The translations under genes and the position numbers were made by a program. Of a stretch of DNA of 58,126 nt, positions 156 to 9,462 are shown in pieces. Below the pieces are notes generated by a model. That model ran no database searches, was not told where the DNA came from, and saw only the letters and a program-made list of their open reading frames with translations. This DNA comes from Candidatus Hadarchaeota archaeon (GTDB taxonomy: Archaea; Hadarchaeota; Hadarchaeia; Hadarchaeales; Hadarchaeaceae), in NCBI GenBank assembly GCA_040755315.1, contig JBFMBF010000005.1, positions 1-58,126 of the forward strand, in the 5' to 3' direction. The stretch's first letter is position 1, and each line of letters opens with the position of its first letter.

Positions 156-1418
156 CTACTTCGACGGCACAAGGTCCACGCAGACGCCTGCGGCTATCGT
201 CTGGCCCCCATGCCTCACGGCAAAGCGGCTCATCTCGGGGATATCGCTCGCTCGCTCTATCACAATGGGCTTGAGCAATGAAATTTTCACCAAGGCCGCG
301 TCTCCCTTCCTGAGCGCTTTGGGTTTTTCCTCCGTCGTCCCCCCTGTCCTAGGATCTATCTTCTGCAGGAGTTCGGAAAACTTTCCGGGGGCGTTGGCGG
401 CGTGGCAGTGAAACAAAGGCGTGAAGCCGGCAGAAATGTCGGTGGGGACGGCCAGCACAACTATTTTGGCCGTGAACTCCAGAGTGACGGTTGGGGGTTT
501 GTCGGGGTGTCCCATCACGTCACCTCTCCTCAACTGGTCTTTTGTTATCCCGCGGACGTTGACCCCTATGTTGTCCCCCGGGACCGCGCTCTGGACCGGC
601 TGGTGATGCATTTCAATTGATCGTACCTCTCCCTTGGCCCCTGCCGGCTCGAACACGACAACGTCGCCCAGCTTCAGTGTTCCTGTCTCAACTCTGCCAA
701 TCGGTACAGTCCCAACTCCGGTGACGGAAAACACATCTTGGATGGGAACCCGCAGAGGCTTGTCCACAGGCTTCGGCGGCTCAGTGAGCTCTTCCAATGC
801 TTGGATGAGCGTGGGGCCGGTGTACCACTTCATCTTCTCGCTAGGCTTGGACACCCCATCCCCTTGGAATGCCGATATGGGGACATATTTGAAGCTCTCG
901 GCTCCCCGGTACCCGATTCCGGTCAACAACTTTGCCATGCTCTCCTTCAGCGTCTGATATGTTTCCTTGCCAAACGAGACTGTGTCCATCTTGTTTATCG
1001 CGACAACCAGCTGGTCAACCCCGAGGGTGAATGCGAGGGCCGCGTGCTCGCGGGTTTGCGGCATTACCCCGTCGTCGGCTGCCACGACAAGTACCGCTGC
1101 GTCTGCCTGGCTGGCTCCAGTTATCATGTTCTTGACAAAGTCCCTGTGGCCCGGGGCGTCGATGATCGTCAGGGAGTTCTTCTGCGTTTCCAGCTTCTGG
1201 TAAGCGATGTCTATCGTGACTCCCCTTTCTCTCTCTTCTTTTTCCTGGTCCATGACCCAGGCAAACTTGAAGCTTTTCCCCTTGTCACCCATGGCTTCAA
1301 ACTTCTTCACGTCTTCGGACCTCACAATTCCCGTGTCGACGAGCAATCTGCCTATCAAGGTTGACTTGCCATGGTCAACGTGCCCGATGAAAACAAGGTT
1401 GACGTGCGGTTTTTGCAT
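156..1418 (-). CDS. tuf: Translation elongation factor EF-1alpha family GTPase (probable divergent paralog)
   Basis: GHVDHGKST, EERERGVTID, DAPGHRDFVKNMITGASQADAA, NKMD, EMHH; not flanked by fusA/rpsJ. Confidence 0.9.
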   Translation of the reverse strand: MQKPHVNLVFIGHVDHGKSTLIGRLLVDTGIVRSEDVKKFEAMGDKGKSFKFAWVMDQEKEERERGVTIDIAYQKLETQKNSLTIIDAPGHRDFVKNMITGASQADAAVLVVAADDGVMPQTREHAALAFTLGVDQLVVAINKMDTVSFGKETYQTLKESMAKLLTGIGYRGAESFKYVPISAFQGDGVSKPSEKMKWYTGPTLIQALEELTEPPKPVDKPLRVPIQDVFSVTGVGTVPIGRVETGTLKLGDVVVFEPAGAKGEVRSIEMHHQPVQSAVPGDNIGVNVRGITKDQLRRGDVMGHPDKPPTVTLEFTAKIVVLAVPTDISAGFTPLFHCHAANAPGKFSELLQKIDPRTGGTTEEKPKALRKGDAALVKISLLKPIVIERASDIPEMSRFAVRHGGQTIAAGVCVDLVPSK

Positions 1419-2963: not shown

Positions 2964-2980
2964 GAAAACGCATTTATGAA
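2964..2980 (+). promoter_or_regulatory. BRE/TATA promoter of tRNA-Asn
   Basis: GAAAACG-CA-TTTATGAA about 30 nt upstream of position 3002. Confidence 0.55.
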
Positions 2981-3010
2981 GCAAGACTACATATTTTTGG
3001 CGCCGGGGGT

Positions 3011-3161
3011 GCCGGGGTTCCGCAAGGGCCCGACAGCTCAGTAGGTAGAGTACCCGGCTGTTATACCTGGTGTGGATGAAGAACGAACCTCAATAAAGGG
3101 GACGACACGCTTGGTTGCAGCAACCGGGTGGTCAGAGGTTCGAGTCCTCTCCCCGGCGCCA
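3011..3161 (+). tRNA. tRNA-Asn(GTT) with two introns (3019-3034 at 8/9; 3064-3122 at 37/38), CCA encoded
   Basis: Acceptor GCCGGGG/CCCCGGC-G-CCA; D arm GCTC..GAGT; anticodon stem CCCGG/CCGGG with CT-GTT-A; T arm AGAGG-TTCGAGT-CCTCT; BHB motifs at both introns; T-run follows. Confidence 0.88.
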
Positions 3162-3216
3162 TTTTTAAAACCCGAAAAGTTCAAGGTTACTAAAATCACA
3201 TGTATAACTGGATTTG

Positions 3217-4203
3217 ATGAAAATCCTGCTGCTGTCCAAGAGAGATGTAGAGAAGCTCATCTCTATGCGGGAGACCATTAAAGCTGTTGAAGAAGCCTTC
3301 CGCGCAAAAGGGCTGGACAGGGTCCAGATGCCCCCAAAGTCTTACGTTTATTTCAAGGAATACAATGGCGATTTTCGGGTGATGCCCGCATACCTCGAGG
3401 AAACGGGTGCCGCAGGAGTCAAGATTGTCAATGCCCATCCCAACAACCCAAAAAAATACGGTTTGCCGACTGTCATGGCGACAATGTTTCTTTTGGACCC
3501 GAGAACCGGCATCCCGCTGGCGATAATGGACGGTACATTGATAACAAACATGAGGACTGGTGCAGGAGGGGCCGTGGCGGCGAAACACCTTGCGCGGAAG
3601 GACTCGCGAGTGCTGGCCATGGTCGGGGCAGGGGTGCAAGCCAGGACACAACTGCTGGCGCTGGACGAGGTGCTTGAGATTGGGGAGGTCCGAGTCAACG
3701 ACTCTTCTTTGGAAAAATCCAAGCAGTTCTCGGCTGAGATGGGTAGGGAACTAGGCGTTGTGGTGAAGGCCTTTAAAAATACCAAGGATGCTGTCGTGGG
3801 CGCTGATGTTGTTGTCACAACTACCCCAGTCCGAGTTCCGATTTTGAAAGATTCGTGGATTTCCGAAGGGATGCACATCAACGCCATCGGGGCGGACGCT
3901 CCGGGAAAGCAGGAGCTTGAGCCGGAGATTTTGCTCCGCGCCAAGGTCGTGGTAGACGACATCGAACAGGCCATCCACGGCGGCGAAGTCAATGTTCCGC
4001 TCTCGAAGGGGGATATTTCTCGTGGCAACATCTACTCCGACTTGGGGGCGGTGGTCACAGGAAAAAAGGCTGGCAGAACTTCGGATGAAGAAATCACGGT
4101 CTTCGACTCTACGGGGCTGGCGGTCCAAGACATAGCAACCGACTGGGTAGTTTACAAAAAGGCGAAGAAGCTCGGAGTCGGGCGAGAAGTGGAACTCTTC
4201 TGA
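3217..4203 (+). CDS. ala: Alanine dehydrogenase, ornithine cyclodeaminase/mu-crystallin family
   Basis: GDFRVMPAY, GVKIVNAHPNNP, RTGAGGA, GAGVQA, INAIGAD, FDSTGLAVQD. Confidence 0.88.
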   Translation: MKILLLSKRDVEKLISMRETIKAVEEAFRAKGLDRVQMPPKSYVYFKEYNGDFRVMPAYLEETGAAGVKIVNAHPNNPKKYGLPTVMATMFLLDPRTGIPLAIMDGTLITNMRTGAGGAVAAKHLARKDSRVLAMVGAGVQARTQLLALDEVLEIGEVRVNDSSLEKSKQFSAEMGRELGVVVKAFKNTKDAVVGADVVVTTTPVRVPILKDSWISEGMHINAIGADAPGKQELEPEILLRAKVVVDDIEQAIHGGEVNVPLSKGDISRGNIYSDLGAVVTGKKAGRTSDEEITVFDSTGLAVQDIATDWVVYKKAKKLGVGREVELF

Positions 4204-5298: not shown

Positions 5299-6219
5299 AT
5301 GGGAGAAGGCAGAGGCTTTGGAAAAGTAATACTCTTTGGGGAACACTTTGTCGTTTACTCAGTTCCATCCATCGTCTCTGCCATTGAGAAAGCCACGACA
5401 GCCACCGTGACGCGAGGCGACGGGACGGGGTGGACACTTGACGATCGCAGGCCGGAGACGCTTGGTTACAAGCGGGAGAAGCTGGAGCAGCAGAAAGACT
5501 CAATCGAGAGGGTGCTGAAGGCGGCGGGCGTTGACACGAAAAACAACCCCATCAAGATATCACTGGGCGGGGACCTAGTGGCGGCGAGCGGAGTGGGGGC
5601 AAGTGCTGCTTCATGCGTCGCGCTGGCGAGGGCCCTTTCAGACGAGTTTGACTTTGAATTTTCGGACGAGCGGGTGAACACAATAGCCTACGAGGGTGAG
5701 AAGGCCTACCACGGCAACCCTTCAGGGGTGGACAACACCGCGGCCACTTATGGCGGGCTCATCTGGTTTGTCCGAGGAAAGCCTATCGAGAGGATAACTG
5801 TCAGGCGCCCGGTGGAGGTGGTGATAGGAAACACAGGCCTCGTCGCCAACACTGAGGCTGCAGTGGCCGGGGTGAAGGAGCGAAGGCAGAAAAACCCTGA
5901 AAAGTATGGAAAAATCTTCAAGGGGGCAGAGGAGCTCGCTTTCATGGCTAGGAAGGCGCTTGTTGACTATGACCTGAGGGCTGTCGGCAGCCTCATGGAC
6001 GAGAACCACAGGCAGCTGCAGGCGATAGAGGTCTCGAGCAAGGAGCTGGACTTCCTCGTGGATCTTGCCAGGGAGAACGGCGCGTACGGGGCGAAGATGA
6101 CTGGCGGGGGGCTGGGGGGGAACATGGTCGCCCTGACGCCGGGGAGGGCGCTTCAGGACTCCGTCGCCCGCGCCATCAGGGAAGAGGGTTTTGAAGTAGT
6201 TGCGACAAGAATAGGATGA
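5299..6219 (+). CDS. mvk: Mevalonate kinase
   Basis: GKVILFGEHFVVY, GVGASAA, HGNPSGVD, AKMTGGGLGG. Confidence 0.93.
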   Translation: MGEGRGFGKVILFGEHFVVYSVPSIVSAIEKATTATVTRGDGTGWTLDDRRPETLGYKREKLEQQKDSIERVLKAAGVDTKNNPIKISLGGDLVAASGVGASAASCVALARALSDEFDFEFSDERVNTIAYEGEKAYHGNPSGVDNTAATYGGLIWFVRGKPIERITVRRPVEVVIGNTGLVANTEAAVAGVKERRQKNPEKYGKIFKGAEELAFMARKALVDYDLRAVGSLMDENHRQLQAIEVSSKELDFLVDLARENGAYGAKMTGGGLGGNMVALTPGRALQDSVARAIREEGFEVVATRIG

Positions 6220-6223
6220 GAGG

Positions 6224-7498
6224 ATGAACTTCAGGGACTTCGTGAAGCTGCTGGATGAAAAGGGCCTCCTCGTGAGGATCAAGCTACCGGTCGACACCAA
6301 GTTTGAAATCTCGACCCTCGTGAAGATGATGAACGACAAGCCGCTTTTGTTCGAAAACGTGCGGGGACATTCTATGCAGGTGGCGGCCAATATCTGCTCC
6401 ACGCGAGAACTCGTCGCCCTCGGGCTCGGGATAAAGCCTGGCGAAATTATTTCCAAGCTTGCCCACGCCATAGAAAATCCCAAGGAGCTGAAGGTGGTGA
6501 AGGCCGAGGGTTACAGGGAAGTGCCGCCTGACCTGTCAAAGTTCCCAATCCTGCTCCACTACCCGTTCGACGGCGGGCCCTACATCTCCTCAGGGGTGGT
6601 GGTGGCGAGGGACCCCCAGCTCGGCATAAACATCTCGTTCCACAGAATGATGGTGATCTCAAAAGACAAGATAGTGCTGAGGATTCTGCCGCGGGACTTT
6701 GATACATTCCTCAAGCGCGGGAACAAGGAGTTCGCCATCTGCATTGGCGACGCGATGCCCGTCCTCGTGTCGGCGGCCGTCTCGGTGGAGCTGGGGAAGA
6801 GCGAGCTCAACATTGCCAACACCTTGGGAGAAACCAACCTGCTCGAGCTTGGCGGGCACAAGGTCCCAGAAGCGGAGATAGTCATGATAGCGGAGATGAC
6901 GGGGGAGGAGCATGACGAGGGGCCTTTCCTCGACCTCACGGAGACCCCCGACATCGTGAGGAAGCAACGTGTTGCAAAAATCAAGAAGATATTCACAAAA
7001 GACAAGCCGCTGTTTCACGCGCTGCTGCCCGGCGGCCTCGAACACAAGACATTGATGGGGATGCCGAGGGAGCCGACGATATTCCGGGAGGTGAGCAAGG
7101 TCTGCGAGTGCAAGGATGTTTTGATAACCCCTGGCGGCTGCTCATGGCTGCACGCCGTCGTGAGCATAAAGAAGAAGAACCCGGACGACGGCAGGAAGGC
7201 CATAGAGGCGGCTTTCAGTGGGCACAAGTCACTGAAACACGTCTGGGTGGTGGACGACGACATGGACATCCACAACCCTCACGAGGTAGAGTGGGCGATG
7301 GCGACGAGGTTTCAGGGCGACAAGGACCTGATAATCAAAAAAGAGCCGGGTTCCTCGCTTGACCCATCCTCTGACCTTGAGACAAGGATGACGGCGAAGG
7401 TCGGCTTTGACCTGACCATCCCATCTGACAGAGACCCGAACGACTTCAAGAAGCCGGAGCTGCCGATGAAGCTGGACCCGAAAGACTACTTGGTTTGA
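6224..7498 (+). CDS. UbiD-family decarboxylase, probable anhydromevalonate phosphate decarboxylase
   Basis: DGGPYISSG, EGPF, GGCSWLH, EWAMATRFQ, SSLDPS; 4 nt downstream of mvk. Confidence 0.85.
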   Translation: MNFRDFVKLLDEKGLLVRIKLPVDTKFEISTLVKMMNDKPLLFENVRGHSMQVAANICSTRELVALGLGIKPGEIISKLAHAIENPKELKVVKAEGYREVPPDLSKFPILLHYPFDGGPYISSGVVVARDPQLGINISFHRMMVISKDKIVLRILPRDFDTFLKRGNKEFAICIGDAMPVLVSAAVSVELGKSELNIANTLGETNLLELGGHKVPEAEIVMIAEMTGEEHDEGPFLDLTETPDIVRKQRVAKIKKIFTKDKPLFHALLPGGLEHKTLMGMPREPTIFREVSKVCECKDVLITPGGCSWLHAVVSIKKKNPDDGRKAIEAAFSGHKSLKHVWVVDDDMDIHNPHEVEWAMATRFQGDKDLIIKKEPGSSLDPSSDLETRMTAKVGFDLTIPSDRDPNDFKKPELPMKLDPKDYLV

Positions 7499-7569: not shown

Positions 7570-9462
7570 TTGAGGATATTGCTGATACACGCCGACTTCC
7601 TCGAGTTCGAGGTGAAGCAGCCCACGCCAGCCGCTGAAGAGGTCGCCCAAGAAAAGAGGACCGGGCGGCTGGAAGAGGTGCTGGTCGTCTTCTCGGCTGC
7701 GGAGGAGGAGGACGAGGGCAGCATTGAAGAGGTGTCCAAAAACGCCGCGCGGGACATAGCGGACGTGGCGGGGAAGGTCGGGGCCGAACGCGTCGCCATC
7801 TACCCCTACGCCCACCTCAGCCCATCTCTCGCTTCTCCAAGGGCCGCAGTGAAGCTTCTCGACGCGACCCGGGATGAGCTGCAGAATCTCGGCCTTGAGA
7901 CCCACCGCCTGCCGTTCGGGTGGTACAAGGCTTTCAAGATTTCATGCAAGGGTCACCCCCTCAGCGAGCTGTCACGCCAGATTACGGCGGGGAAGGTTGC
8001 GGAAGCCCTCACGGAGGCGCTGGTGCAGGAGGAGAAGGTAAGGTCAACTTGGTTTGTGCTGGAGCCCAGCGGCGAGACCCACGAGGTGAAGCTGGAGGGC
8101 AACGACATCACTGGTTACGACTTTTCAAAGAACGAGAACCTCCGGCTCTTCCTGATGCACGAGATCGCTAAGAAGAGGGAGGCGACCGAGGAGCCGCCAC
8201 ACGTCCAGCTCATGAGGAGGCTTGAACTCTTGGACTACGAGCCGGGGAGCGACTCCGGCAACTTCAGGCTGTACCCGAAGGGGAGGCTGGTCAAGAGCCT
8301 GCTCGAGGAGTGGGTGAGCCATCGGGTGAAAGATTACGGCGCGATGGAGATAGAGACCCCGATAATGTACGACTACGAGCACCCGGCGCTGAAGGACTAC
8401 CTCGAGAGGTTCCCGGCGCGGCAATACACGCTCAAGTCCACCAAGAAGAAATTGTTCCTCAGGTTCTCAGCTTGCTTTGGGCAGTTCCTGATGGCGGCCT
8501 CGAGCACCATCTCCTACCGCGACCTGCCCCTCAGGATGTACGAACTAACGAGGTACTCTTTCAGGCTTGAGAAGACGGGAGAGCTTTCGGGGCTCAGGCG
8601 CCTGCGCTCGTTCACGATGCCGGACATGCACACCATCTGCAGCGACGAGGAGCAGGCGAAGAAGGAGTTCCTTAACCAGTTCAAGTTGAGCATGAGATGC
8701 ATGAGGGAGATTGGCTTCACGCGGGAGAACTACGAGACTGGATTCAGGGCCACGCAGGAATTCTGGGAGAAAAATAAGGATTTCGTGACATCACTGGTCA
8801 AGCTGGTGAAGCGCCCCGTGCTGCTTGAGGTCTGGAGCCACCGCTACGCCTATTTCGACCCAAAGTTCGAGTTCAACTTCGTGGACAACCTAGGAAAGGC
8901 CTCCGCCCTGTCGACTGTTCAGATGGACCACGAGAACGCGAAGAGGTACGGGATAGTTTACATAGACGAGAAAAATGAGAAAAGGAACCCGCTTATCCTC
9001 CACTGCTCGCCTTCCGGAAGCCTGGAGAGGGTGATCTACGCCCTGCTTGAGAAGGCCGTCAAGGACCAGAAGGTGGGGAAGTCGCCGAGCCTTCCCCTCT
9101 GGCTGGCGCCGACACAGGTCAGGCTGATCCCGATCGCCGACCGCCACAGAAAATTCTGCGAGCGGGTCGCGGACGAGCTCGAAAACTCCTGTGTGAGGGT
9201 GGATGTGGATGACAGGGGCGAGACTGTGCAGAAGAAGATAAGGGACGCCGAGAGGGAATGGGTTCCCTACAGCATCGTTGCGGGGGACAGGGAGCTCAAG
9301 CTGAAGAAGATTCCGGTCAGGGTGAGGGGCAAAAAGGCGCTCAAGCAGATGACAGTGAAGGGGCTATGCACAGAGATTTCAAAGAAGATCAAAGGAATGC
9401 CGTTCAAACCCACCCCTCTGCCGCGCCAGCTCTCGAAGCGGCCGATTTTCTTTGGCGGATAA
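7570..9462 (+). CDS. thrS: Threonyl-tRNA synthetase (archaeal type with N-terminal editing domain)
   Basis: MRILLIHAD, YPYAHLS, PFGWYKAF..CKGHPLSELSR, FTMPDMH, LHCSPSGSLER. Confidence 0.97.
   Translation: MRILLIHADFLEFEVKQPTPAAEEVAQEKRTGRLEEVLVVFSAAEEEDEGSIEEVSKNAARDIADVAGKVGAERVAIYPYAHLSPSLASPRAAVKLLDATRDELQNLGLETHRLPFGWYKAFKISCKGHPLSELSRQITAGKVAEALTEALVQEEKVRSTWFVLEPSGETHEVKLEGNDITGYDFSKNENLRLFLMHEIAKKREATEEPPHVQLMRRLELLDYEPGSDSGNFRLYPKGRLVKSLLEEWVSHRVKDYGAMEIETPIMYDYEHPALKDYLERFPARQYTLKSTKKKLFLRFSACFGQFLMAASSTISYRDLPLRMYELTRYSFRLEKTGELSGLRRLRSFTMPDMHTICSDEEQAKKEFLNQFKLSMRCMREIGFTRENYETGFRATQEFWEKNKDFVTSLVKLVKRPVLLEVWSHRYAYFDPKFEFNFVDNLGKASALSTVQMDHENAKRYGIVYIDEKNEKRNPLILHCSPSGSLERVIYALLEKAVKDQKVGKSPSLPLWLAPTQVRLIPIADRHRKFCERVADELENSCVRVDVDDRGETVQKKIRDAEREWVPYSIVAGDRELKLKKIPVRVRGKKALKQMTVKGLCTEISKKIKGMPFKPTPLPRQLSKRPIFFGG

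Follow-up and report, generated by a model that had tools for sequence, protein, structure and literature searches.

A tRNA-Asn intron at position 8/9 in Hadarchaeota and a leader copy of the acceptor strand that probably permits its splicing

Introduction

The window, that is the whole 58,126-nt stretch of DNA analysed here, comes from a Hadarchaeota genome and carries at positions 3011-3161 of its plus strand a tRNA-Asn(GUU) gene of three exons and two introns (Table 1). The first intron lies at position 8/9. Its bulge-helix-bulge (BHB) takes bases 1-8 and 10-11 of the tRNA and so cannot coexist with a closed, G-C-rich acceptor stem of 7 bp, which raises the question of how such an intron could be spliced. 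We found a spare acceptor strand in the leader at 2999-3010, a feature absent from the first-pass annotation of this DNA, and this strand probably makes the 8/9 position spliceable.

Table 1. Features of the tRNA-Asn(GUU) gene and its flanks, in window coordinates
Feature	Position	Strand	Remarks and basis
TATA-like box (TTTATGAA)	2973..2980	+	A-rich BRE-like stretch upstream; sequence
5′ leader with spare (decoy) acceptor strand	2999..3010	+	Sequence, duplex energy, conservation
Exon 1, tRNA positions 1-8	3011..3018	+	Outer helix, central helix and 5′ bulge of BHB
Intron A, 16 nt, position 8/9, strict hBHBh′	3019..3034	+	Pairing, shuffles, covariation
Exon 2, positions 9-37	3035..3063	+	Anticodon GUU at 3060-3062
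Intron B, 59 nt, canonical 37/38	3064..3122	+	Stem, C-box-like word, T-arm complement, D-box-like word
Exon 3, positions 38-76	3123..3161	+	Acceptor 3′ strand 3151-3157, G73 at 3158, encoded CCA 3159-3161
T run, likely transcription terminator	3162..3166	+	Sequence; predicted

Organisation of the tRNA-Asn gene

The gene is flanked by a 272-aa ORF, which ends at 2942, and a 329-aa ORF, which starts at 3214. By reading of their translations, the ORFs at 156-1418 (minus strand) and 3214-4203 resemble EF-1alpha and alanine dehydrogenase/ornithine cyclodeaminase, and those at 5299-6219, 6224-7498 and 7570-9462 resemble mevalonate kinase, a UbiD-family protein and threonyl-tRNA synthetase. From the position of the TATA-like box, transcription of the tRNA gene would start at about 2999. 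Archaeal transcription terminates at oligo-T, and it is on this basis that the T run behind exon 3 is read as a terminator. A sigma-70/terminator scan, whose models do not cover archaeal promoters, gave no match.

ARAGORN reported no gene in the raw window and mis-called the locus as a tRNA-Lys with a 422-nt intron when run on the genome, while the Rfam match was restricted to model positions 9-63. In silico removal of 3019-3034 and 3064-3122 left a 76-nt tRNA-Asn(GUU) with a normal cloverleaf in ARAGORN.

The 8/9 intron and its bulge-helix-bulge

The first-pass annotation had described a 16-nt intron at 3019-3034, position 8/9, and all of its coordinates and pairings are present in the DNA. 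The central helix (3013-3016 with 3029-3032) has four Watson-Crick pairs out of four, the outer helix is made of G1-C11 and C2-G10, and the inner helix of 3020-3021 with 3027-3028. The bulges are 3017-3019 and 3033-3035, and predicted cuts after the second base of each, at 3018/3019 and 3034/3035, match the exon boundaries; orthologues without the intron show the same two ends joined directly. Intron bases 3029-3032 mimic acceptor bases 67-70. Among 200,000 shuffles of the intron, 0.19% (Watson-Crick pairs only) to 0.38% (G-U allowed) rebuilt the central and inner helices at the junction.

The pairing is conserved among relatives. Across 19 distinct relatives 96.3% of BHB cells were paired, compared to 23-41% in slid controls. 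Ten cells in three pairs of the inner helix had changed on both sides, a number that none of 500 shuffles reached in a test that relatedness inflates. The central helix was entirely Watson-Crick in 17 of the 21 aligned intron-bearing genes and had one G-U pair in three and one mismatch in one; the inner helix comprised 2-6 bp in all 21, and exon 1, a motif required by the parser, was invariant in 21/21. The strict BHB is near the predicted minimum-energy fold and does not coincide with it: the local ViennaRNA fold moved the inner helix one base onto a GCAA tetraloop, and the full precursor at both 37 and 60 °C preferred other pairings.

The insert thus has 3-nt bulges, a 4-bp helix, flanking helices, predicted cut sites, cloverleaf, covariation and EndA/RtcB as in archaeal non-canonical BHB tRNA introns. 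We are highly confident that the 8/9 intron in tRNA-Asn is real. An EndA-type intron is the best reading of the insert, given the strict BHB, its conservation with covariation, the sole Asn gene found in an 87% complete genome and the presence of EndA and RtcB.

Distribution of the intron among relatives

A search at the DNA level gave matches in 55 of 61 genomes; 51 of the matches were Asn loci, and four weak short matches were dropped. One Asn locus was parsed per genome, and in many relatives it occupies the same site between conserved neighbours. The 8/9 intron, 15-21 nt long, was present in 21 of the 51 Hadarchaeales Asn genes and absent from 30. Its occurrence is patchy, spanning three families and leaving five genera mixed for presence and absence. 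Asn genes of relatives also contain D-loop and 59/60 introns, with up to four introns per gene, indicating that multiple introns are normal in Hadarchaeales. The expectation in the first-pass annotation that a two-intron tRNA would be unusual in a euryarchaeal-like genome was not borne out, since a BHB-aware finder and manual reading gave at least seven two-intron tRNA genes in this genome. The concern that another tRNA-Asn might lie elsewhere found no support: none was found by the BHB-aware finder and a motif search of the 1.21-Mb, 87% complete assembly.

Although its EndA is single-unit, this genome has a tRNA set rich in introns, which lie at D-loop, anticodon-stem, T-loop and acceptor positions. 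A few of the calls, made with a rough finder, show only a relaxed BHB or none. An initiator-like tRNA-Met (G000:C12:13004-13151) combines a 46-nt 37/38 intron with a 28-nt strict-BHB intron at 68/69. The latter lies inside the acceptor 3′ strand, and its pattern matched 1 of 65 genomes. A tRNA-Glu at G023:C2 near 127700 has a hairpin insert in the acceptor 3′ strand near 69-71. At G000:C8:3376-3577 (minus strand) a long tRNA-like gene has its 5′ part repeated at a distance of ~100 nt, which may reflect a partial duplication, an insertion or a misassembly. An identical tRNA-Val(CAC) locus occurs on two contigs (G000:C17:24665 and C25:85) and is probably an assembly overlap.

Splicing machinery of the host

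The genome encodes one EndA of single-unit size, RtcB, RNase P RNA and Trm56. EndA is the only PF01974 match in this genome and aligns over its full length to PDB 1a79, which we take to be the M. jannaschii enzyme. EndA matches were found in 29 of the 31 genomes searched, with exactly one match in 28 of the 29 (the genomes are incomplete). The same search found two genes in each of five genomes of a second phylum, so a beta subunit encoded here would probably not have escaped it. The first-pass annotation had left the subunit type to be determined; one gene, one unit of ~170-190 aa and no beta subunit point to an alpha4-like enzyme. The ten closest named relatives of this EndA are from Hadarchaeota/Hadesarchaea (one labelled 'Hodarchaeaceae') at 71-92% identity, and two more are at 42%. 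The accessible text of PMC3488258 states that alpha4 enzymes take only strict BHBs, whatever the mature domain. Judged from the sequences, the alpha4-like EndA is likely to be the cutter of the 8/9 intron.

A copy of the acceptor 5′ strand in the leader

Leader bases 3002-3008 are a copy of tRNA positions 1-7, and 2999-3001 can pair with G73-C74-C75. At this locus the duplex of the leader with positions 66-76 has an energy of -27 kcal/mol. Among the 51 Hadarchaeales genomes, a duplex of the leader with 64-76 of -19 kcal/mol or stronger was found in 21/21 intron-bearing compared to 2/30 intron-less Asn genes, and within each of the five mixed genera the presence of the copy tracks the 8/9 intron; the relatives are not independent of each other, and this association is given without the weight of a p-value. 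The distance from the first T of the TATA box to mature G1 is 38 nt here and 37-42 nt in intron-bearing relatives, compared to mostly 29-36 nt in intron-less ones (by a rough pattern match). The spacing is thus larger by about the length of the copy, which places the copy inside the predicted transcript.

We scanned metagenomes with an Asn-shaped pattern blind to the leader, which gave at least 120 loci, some of them duplicating species already in GTDB. All 24 complete metagenomic 8/9 Asn genes among the matches listed had the copy. The 96 loci that were not counted comprise a truncated Asn gene, which also has the copy (L192), two unrelated intron-less tRNAs, one match that was too short and others that are not tRNAs. 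A leader-blind pattern for introns at 9/10 detected 20 Lys(CUU) or Met(CAU) genes in 16 of 65 genomes, and the copy was present in 20/20. In the resulting 65 genes with a copy (21, 24 and 20), 59 pair at 7/7 positions, five at 6/7 and one at 5/7. Within this genome, the copy occurs in 3/3 genes with 8/9 or 9/10 introns compared to 1/37 others, a count from which three doubtful or duplicate calls were removed and to which the Lys gene was added by hand. Individual loci with a strict-BHB 9/10 intron and a leader copy include a tRNA-Met/Ile2(CAU) on the minus strand of G000:C3 near 10423 (L091) and a tRNA-Lys(CUU) at G000:C21 near 12430 (L103).

The arrangement recurs in the second phylum. From 401 genomes, 32 loci, corresponding to 33 of 63 listed matches, were examined, seven of these loci having been chosen by eye, giving at least seven Lys genes with a 9/10 intron in six genomes. 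In all six with an intact 3′ end the leader duplex lies between -17 and -22 kcal/mol; the copy is also visible in the seventh, whose 3′ end is not intact. These copies are mostly shifted onto 73-75 and mostly carry C-to-U changes opposite G, with pairing kept.

Copies also occur without an 8/9 or other 5′ intron. The Asn genes of G040 (L052) and G043 (L050) have a copy and a shortened intron B, and the third genome of their genus has no copy. tRNA-Glu(CUC) has an 8-nt leader duplication and no 5′ intron in two of eight matching genomes (G000:C11:3384, minus strand, L233; and G002, L234), and the G002 copy has a pairing-neutral C-to-U change. Such copies weigh against the decoy reading; they could be remnants of genes that lost the intron, or an early step that permits its gain.

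Conservation of the copy

A different account of these copies, which we regard as unlikely, is that the intron is real and the copy a neutral by-product, a small duplication having arrived with the intron as one block and the BHB forming co-transcriptionally before 66-72 exists so that no decoy is needed. Copy and spacer do resemble a tandem repeat of the gene 5′ end, located at the G1 site of intron-less relatives; copies are found without an intron; and the BHB is local, the acceptor 3′ strand following it in the transcript only after more than 100 nt. However, among 37 distinct Asn genes the copy has a mean pairwise identity of 93% compared to 39% in the seven bases just upstream, and this holds across three families while spacer length (-1 to 4 nt between copy and exon 1) and intron sequence (74% in the intron inner strand) diverge. 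The copy also recurs with another intron position, in other tRNAs and, in a shifted register that still pairs, in the second phylum. It is not a target-site duplication, as the intron lies after both copies and not between them.

The pattern of change within the copy was examined in 21 copy/spacer classes. Six changes keep pairing (C-to-U opposite G) and five break a pair. The pair-breaking changes all fall at copy positions 5-7, and positions 1-4 never lose pairing. Against a decoy function, the changes are not one-sided, and C-to-T is a common mutation. A broken pair occurs in six of the 65 genes, all six of which have a GG(C/U) extension to 73-75.

Predicted folding of the precursor

With the native leader, formation of the central helix costs 1.7 kcal/mol, compared to 7.1-8.9 kcal/mol without a leader and 10.8-13.4 kcal/mol with a plain 3-nt leader. 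Shuffled leaders gave 4.2-5.6 kcal/mol on average and 1.3-2.1 kcal/mol at best. The leader lowers the cost in 39/39 Asn and 20/20 9/10 genes, with a median gain of 4-6 kcal/mol. Such a gain is expected of any complementary competitor, and these values therefore show feasibility, not use. Folds of transcript prefixes also bear on the neutral reading: the central helix formed only in the prefix ending at 3060, and other pairings won at the remaining six lengths, which argues against ready co-transcriptional formation of the BHB.

As long as the leader is whole, pairing by the copy remains 5-7 kcal/mol more favourable than pairing by the true strand in the spliced RNA, suggesting that release of the copy would need trimming or tertiary folding. 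Removal of three bases from the leader 5′ end turns the balance to the true strand, by ~2 kcal/mol in the spliced RNA and also, by 2.3-3.4 kcal/mol, before splicing. Both results weigh against the decoy model.

The copy could instead act mainly on end processing, as a sacrificial or blocking substrate that shields exon 1 from RNase P and nucleases until splicing, a reading that we consider decidedly improbable as the main explanation. Many copies extend onto 73-75, and pairing of leaders with RCCA inhibits bacterial RNase P according to the accessible text of PMC9433436; trimming before splicing, which the available part of PMC3695527 gives as the normal order in M. kandleri, would strand an 8/9 intron in a closed stem. 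Many other copies lack the GG extension, however, and folding alone predicts the median gain of 4-6 kcal/mol. The end-processing and folding-aid roles are compatible.

That the upstream copy at 3002-3008 is itself the mature 5′ strand, with a 7/8 intron and C3034-to-U8 editing or with extra bases looped out, is highly improbable. In its favour, the spacing between the TATA box and the first copy is the usual one, M. kandleri edits C8 to U (accessible text of PMC3695527), and L127/L203, with two identical 8-nt copies, formally allow a 30-nt parse. A cut at 7/8 is matched by no BHB, however, and in relatives any of A, C, G and T can precede position 9, on which grounds a 7/8 intron with C8 editing was rejected. 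The first copy moreover decays, as its broken pairs show, while the second (exon 1) is invariant and is the only one always followed by U8. A second intron of 9 nt between the copies was rejected as too short and devoid of a BHB, and an edited tRNA of the M. kandleri C8-to-U type was rejected as T8 is invariant in exon 1.

A broken or unexpressed gene, or an insert that is an assembly artefact, is extremely improbable: another Asn gene could be missing from an assembly that is 87% complete, but the exons are intact, 20 further genomes and 24 metagenomic contigs share the architecture, with compensatory changes, and relatives have one Asn locus per genome, in many of them between conserved neighbours.

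Intron B

The motif of intron B was found in 56 of 66 genomes of the phylum. The intron contains a stem, a C-box-like word at 3073-3079, a D-box-like word at 3102-3105 and, at 3084-3091, 8 nt complementary to the T arm (3135-3142, positions 50-57). These belong to 12 conserved bases, eight of which complement the T arm of the same tRNA. The base after the 8-mer is C only with G49 (16/16), and A with A49 in 30 genes and with G49 in four. The C-like word is conserved, and the D-like word is degenerate (mostly ACGA, also CUGA and AUGA).

The tRNA-Trp intron of euryarchaea carries a C/D box guide RNA. Like it, intron B is a long, conserved intron at 37/38 that has a stem and C/D-like words and is complementary to part of the tRNA in which it lies; it differs in its host, Asn, in a D-like word that is mostly ACGA and in the placing of the conserved stretch, which lies 3′ of the C box and not before the D box. 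A target search with the conserved 12-mer in five genomes gave background only, with no shared 12-nt target standing out, and 16S rRNA motifs were not found in this assembly. Guiding of Cm56 by intron B was considered and found unsupported, with Trm56 encoded and the guide geometry off. From these sequence features, intron B is possibly a K-turn RNA or a guide or chaperone for the T arm.

Discussion

The model that we consider probable, as read from sequence comparison, is that the BHB intron is cut by EndA and joined by RtcB while the leader copy pairs with the tRNA 3′ end and so frees bases 1-8. Its observed base is the mutual exclusion of BHB and acceptor stem, the mimicry of 67-70 by the intron and of 1-7 by the leader, and the co-occurrence of the two across genes, genera and two phyla. 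The leader would be transcribed, and its pairing with 66-75 would form a surrogate acceptor helix that leaves exon 1 free for EndA. Pairing with 73-75 may slow RNase P; or else an early cut at 3002 would be harmless, as the copy stays. The surrogate stem would be followed by EndA cleavage, RtcB ligation and trimming of the extension, in that order. After ligation and loss of the three extra pairs, exon 1 would displace the copy, aided by tertiary folding. RNase P would cut at 3011 as the last step, and splicing would precede final 5′ maturation. Since M. kandleri trims before splicing, the model predicts a reversed order here. In origin, a tandem duplication of 6-11 nt of the gene 5′ end probably made a 5′-proximal intron tolerable.

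The closest known kind of intron is the non-canonical BHB intron described in Thermoproteales (including position 3/4), Thaumarchaeota, ARMAN-2 and Asgard. According to the available text of PMC4090602, PMC4033280 and PMC8450103, such introns are likewise short, form an hBHBh′ cut after the second bulge base and occur several per gene. The same review passages link strict alpha4/alpha2 EndA to few, canonical introns and relaxed alpha2beta2/epsilon2 EndA to many introns at odd positions; unlike the usual hosts of non-canonical introns, this genome has the single-unit type that they tie to canonical, single introns. A two-intron tRNA-Glu is on record for M. kandleri (accessible part of PMC3695527).

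Positions 8/9 and 9/10 are absent from the list of positions in the text of PMC4090602, a list that ends in 'etc.', and neither is named in the accessible portions of PMC4090602, PMC3218864, PMC4033280, PMC8450103, PMC3293823, PMC11291895, PMC3695527, PMC12397907 and PMC3488258, or in that of bioRxiv 10.64898/2026.10.13.758758, which lumps 'acceptor stem and junctions'. In the accessible papers on archaeal tRNA introns, as distinct from the main intron catalogues, nothing was found on tRNA introns of Hadarchaeota or on an acceptor strand copied in a leader. The 8/9 position is likely to be novel.

Split and permuted tRNAs (Nanoarchaeum, Caldivirga, Thermofilum) share with this gene a structural role of leader or trailer in maturation, as far as the accessible text of PMC3218864 and PMC4090602 describes them. 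There, the leaders build the BHB and are removed by EndA, whereas this gene is collinear and undivided, and its leader lies outside the BHB and replaces one strand of the acceptor stem. A split or permuted tRNA was rejected for this locus, where the exons are collinear within 151 nt behind one TATA-like box. The bacterial pairing of leader and RCCA, in the portion of PMC9433436 at hand, resembles that of 2999-3001 with 73-75; here it would lengthen a complete surrogate acceptor helix that begins from a site 9 nt upstream of where RNase P should cut.

For annotation, the locus matters in that ARAGORN missed the tRNA-Asn gene and a scanner could mistake the copy for the true 5′ end. A wider proposition, on which we are evenly divided, is that archaea have repeatedly evolved a cis-encoded strand-swap chaperone, in which a disposable leader copy forms a false acceptor stem and permits EndA splicing near or inside the true one. 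If this is true, a strict alpha4 EndA can splice introns adjoining or inside the acceptor stem; the order of maturation would be inverted, with splicing first and RNase P cutting twice; and small 5′ duplications, such as those of Glu(CUC) and of the intron-less Asn genes of genus g16, would be the permissive step, making new intron positions available. The implied rule is that a leader copy is required for any intron close to the 5′ end, and the implied route of intron gain has two steps. In an alpha4-like lineage that is rich in introns at odd positions, the conflict of splice motif with acceptor stem appears to be resolved by the RNA itself.
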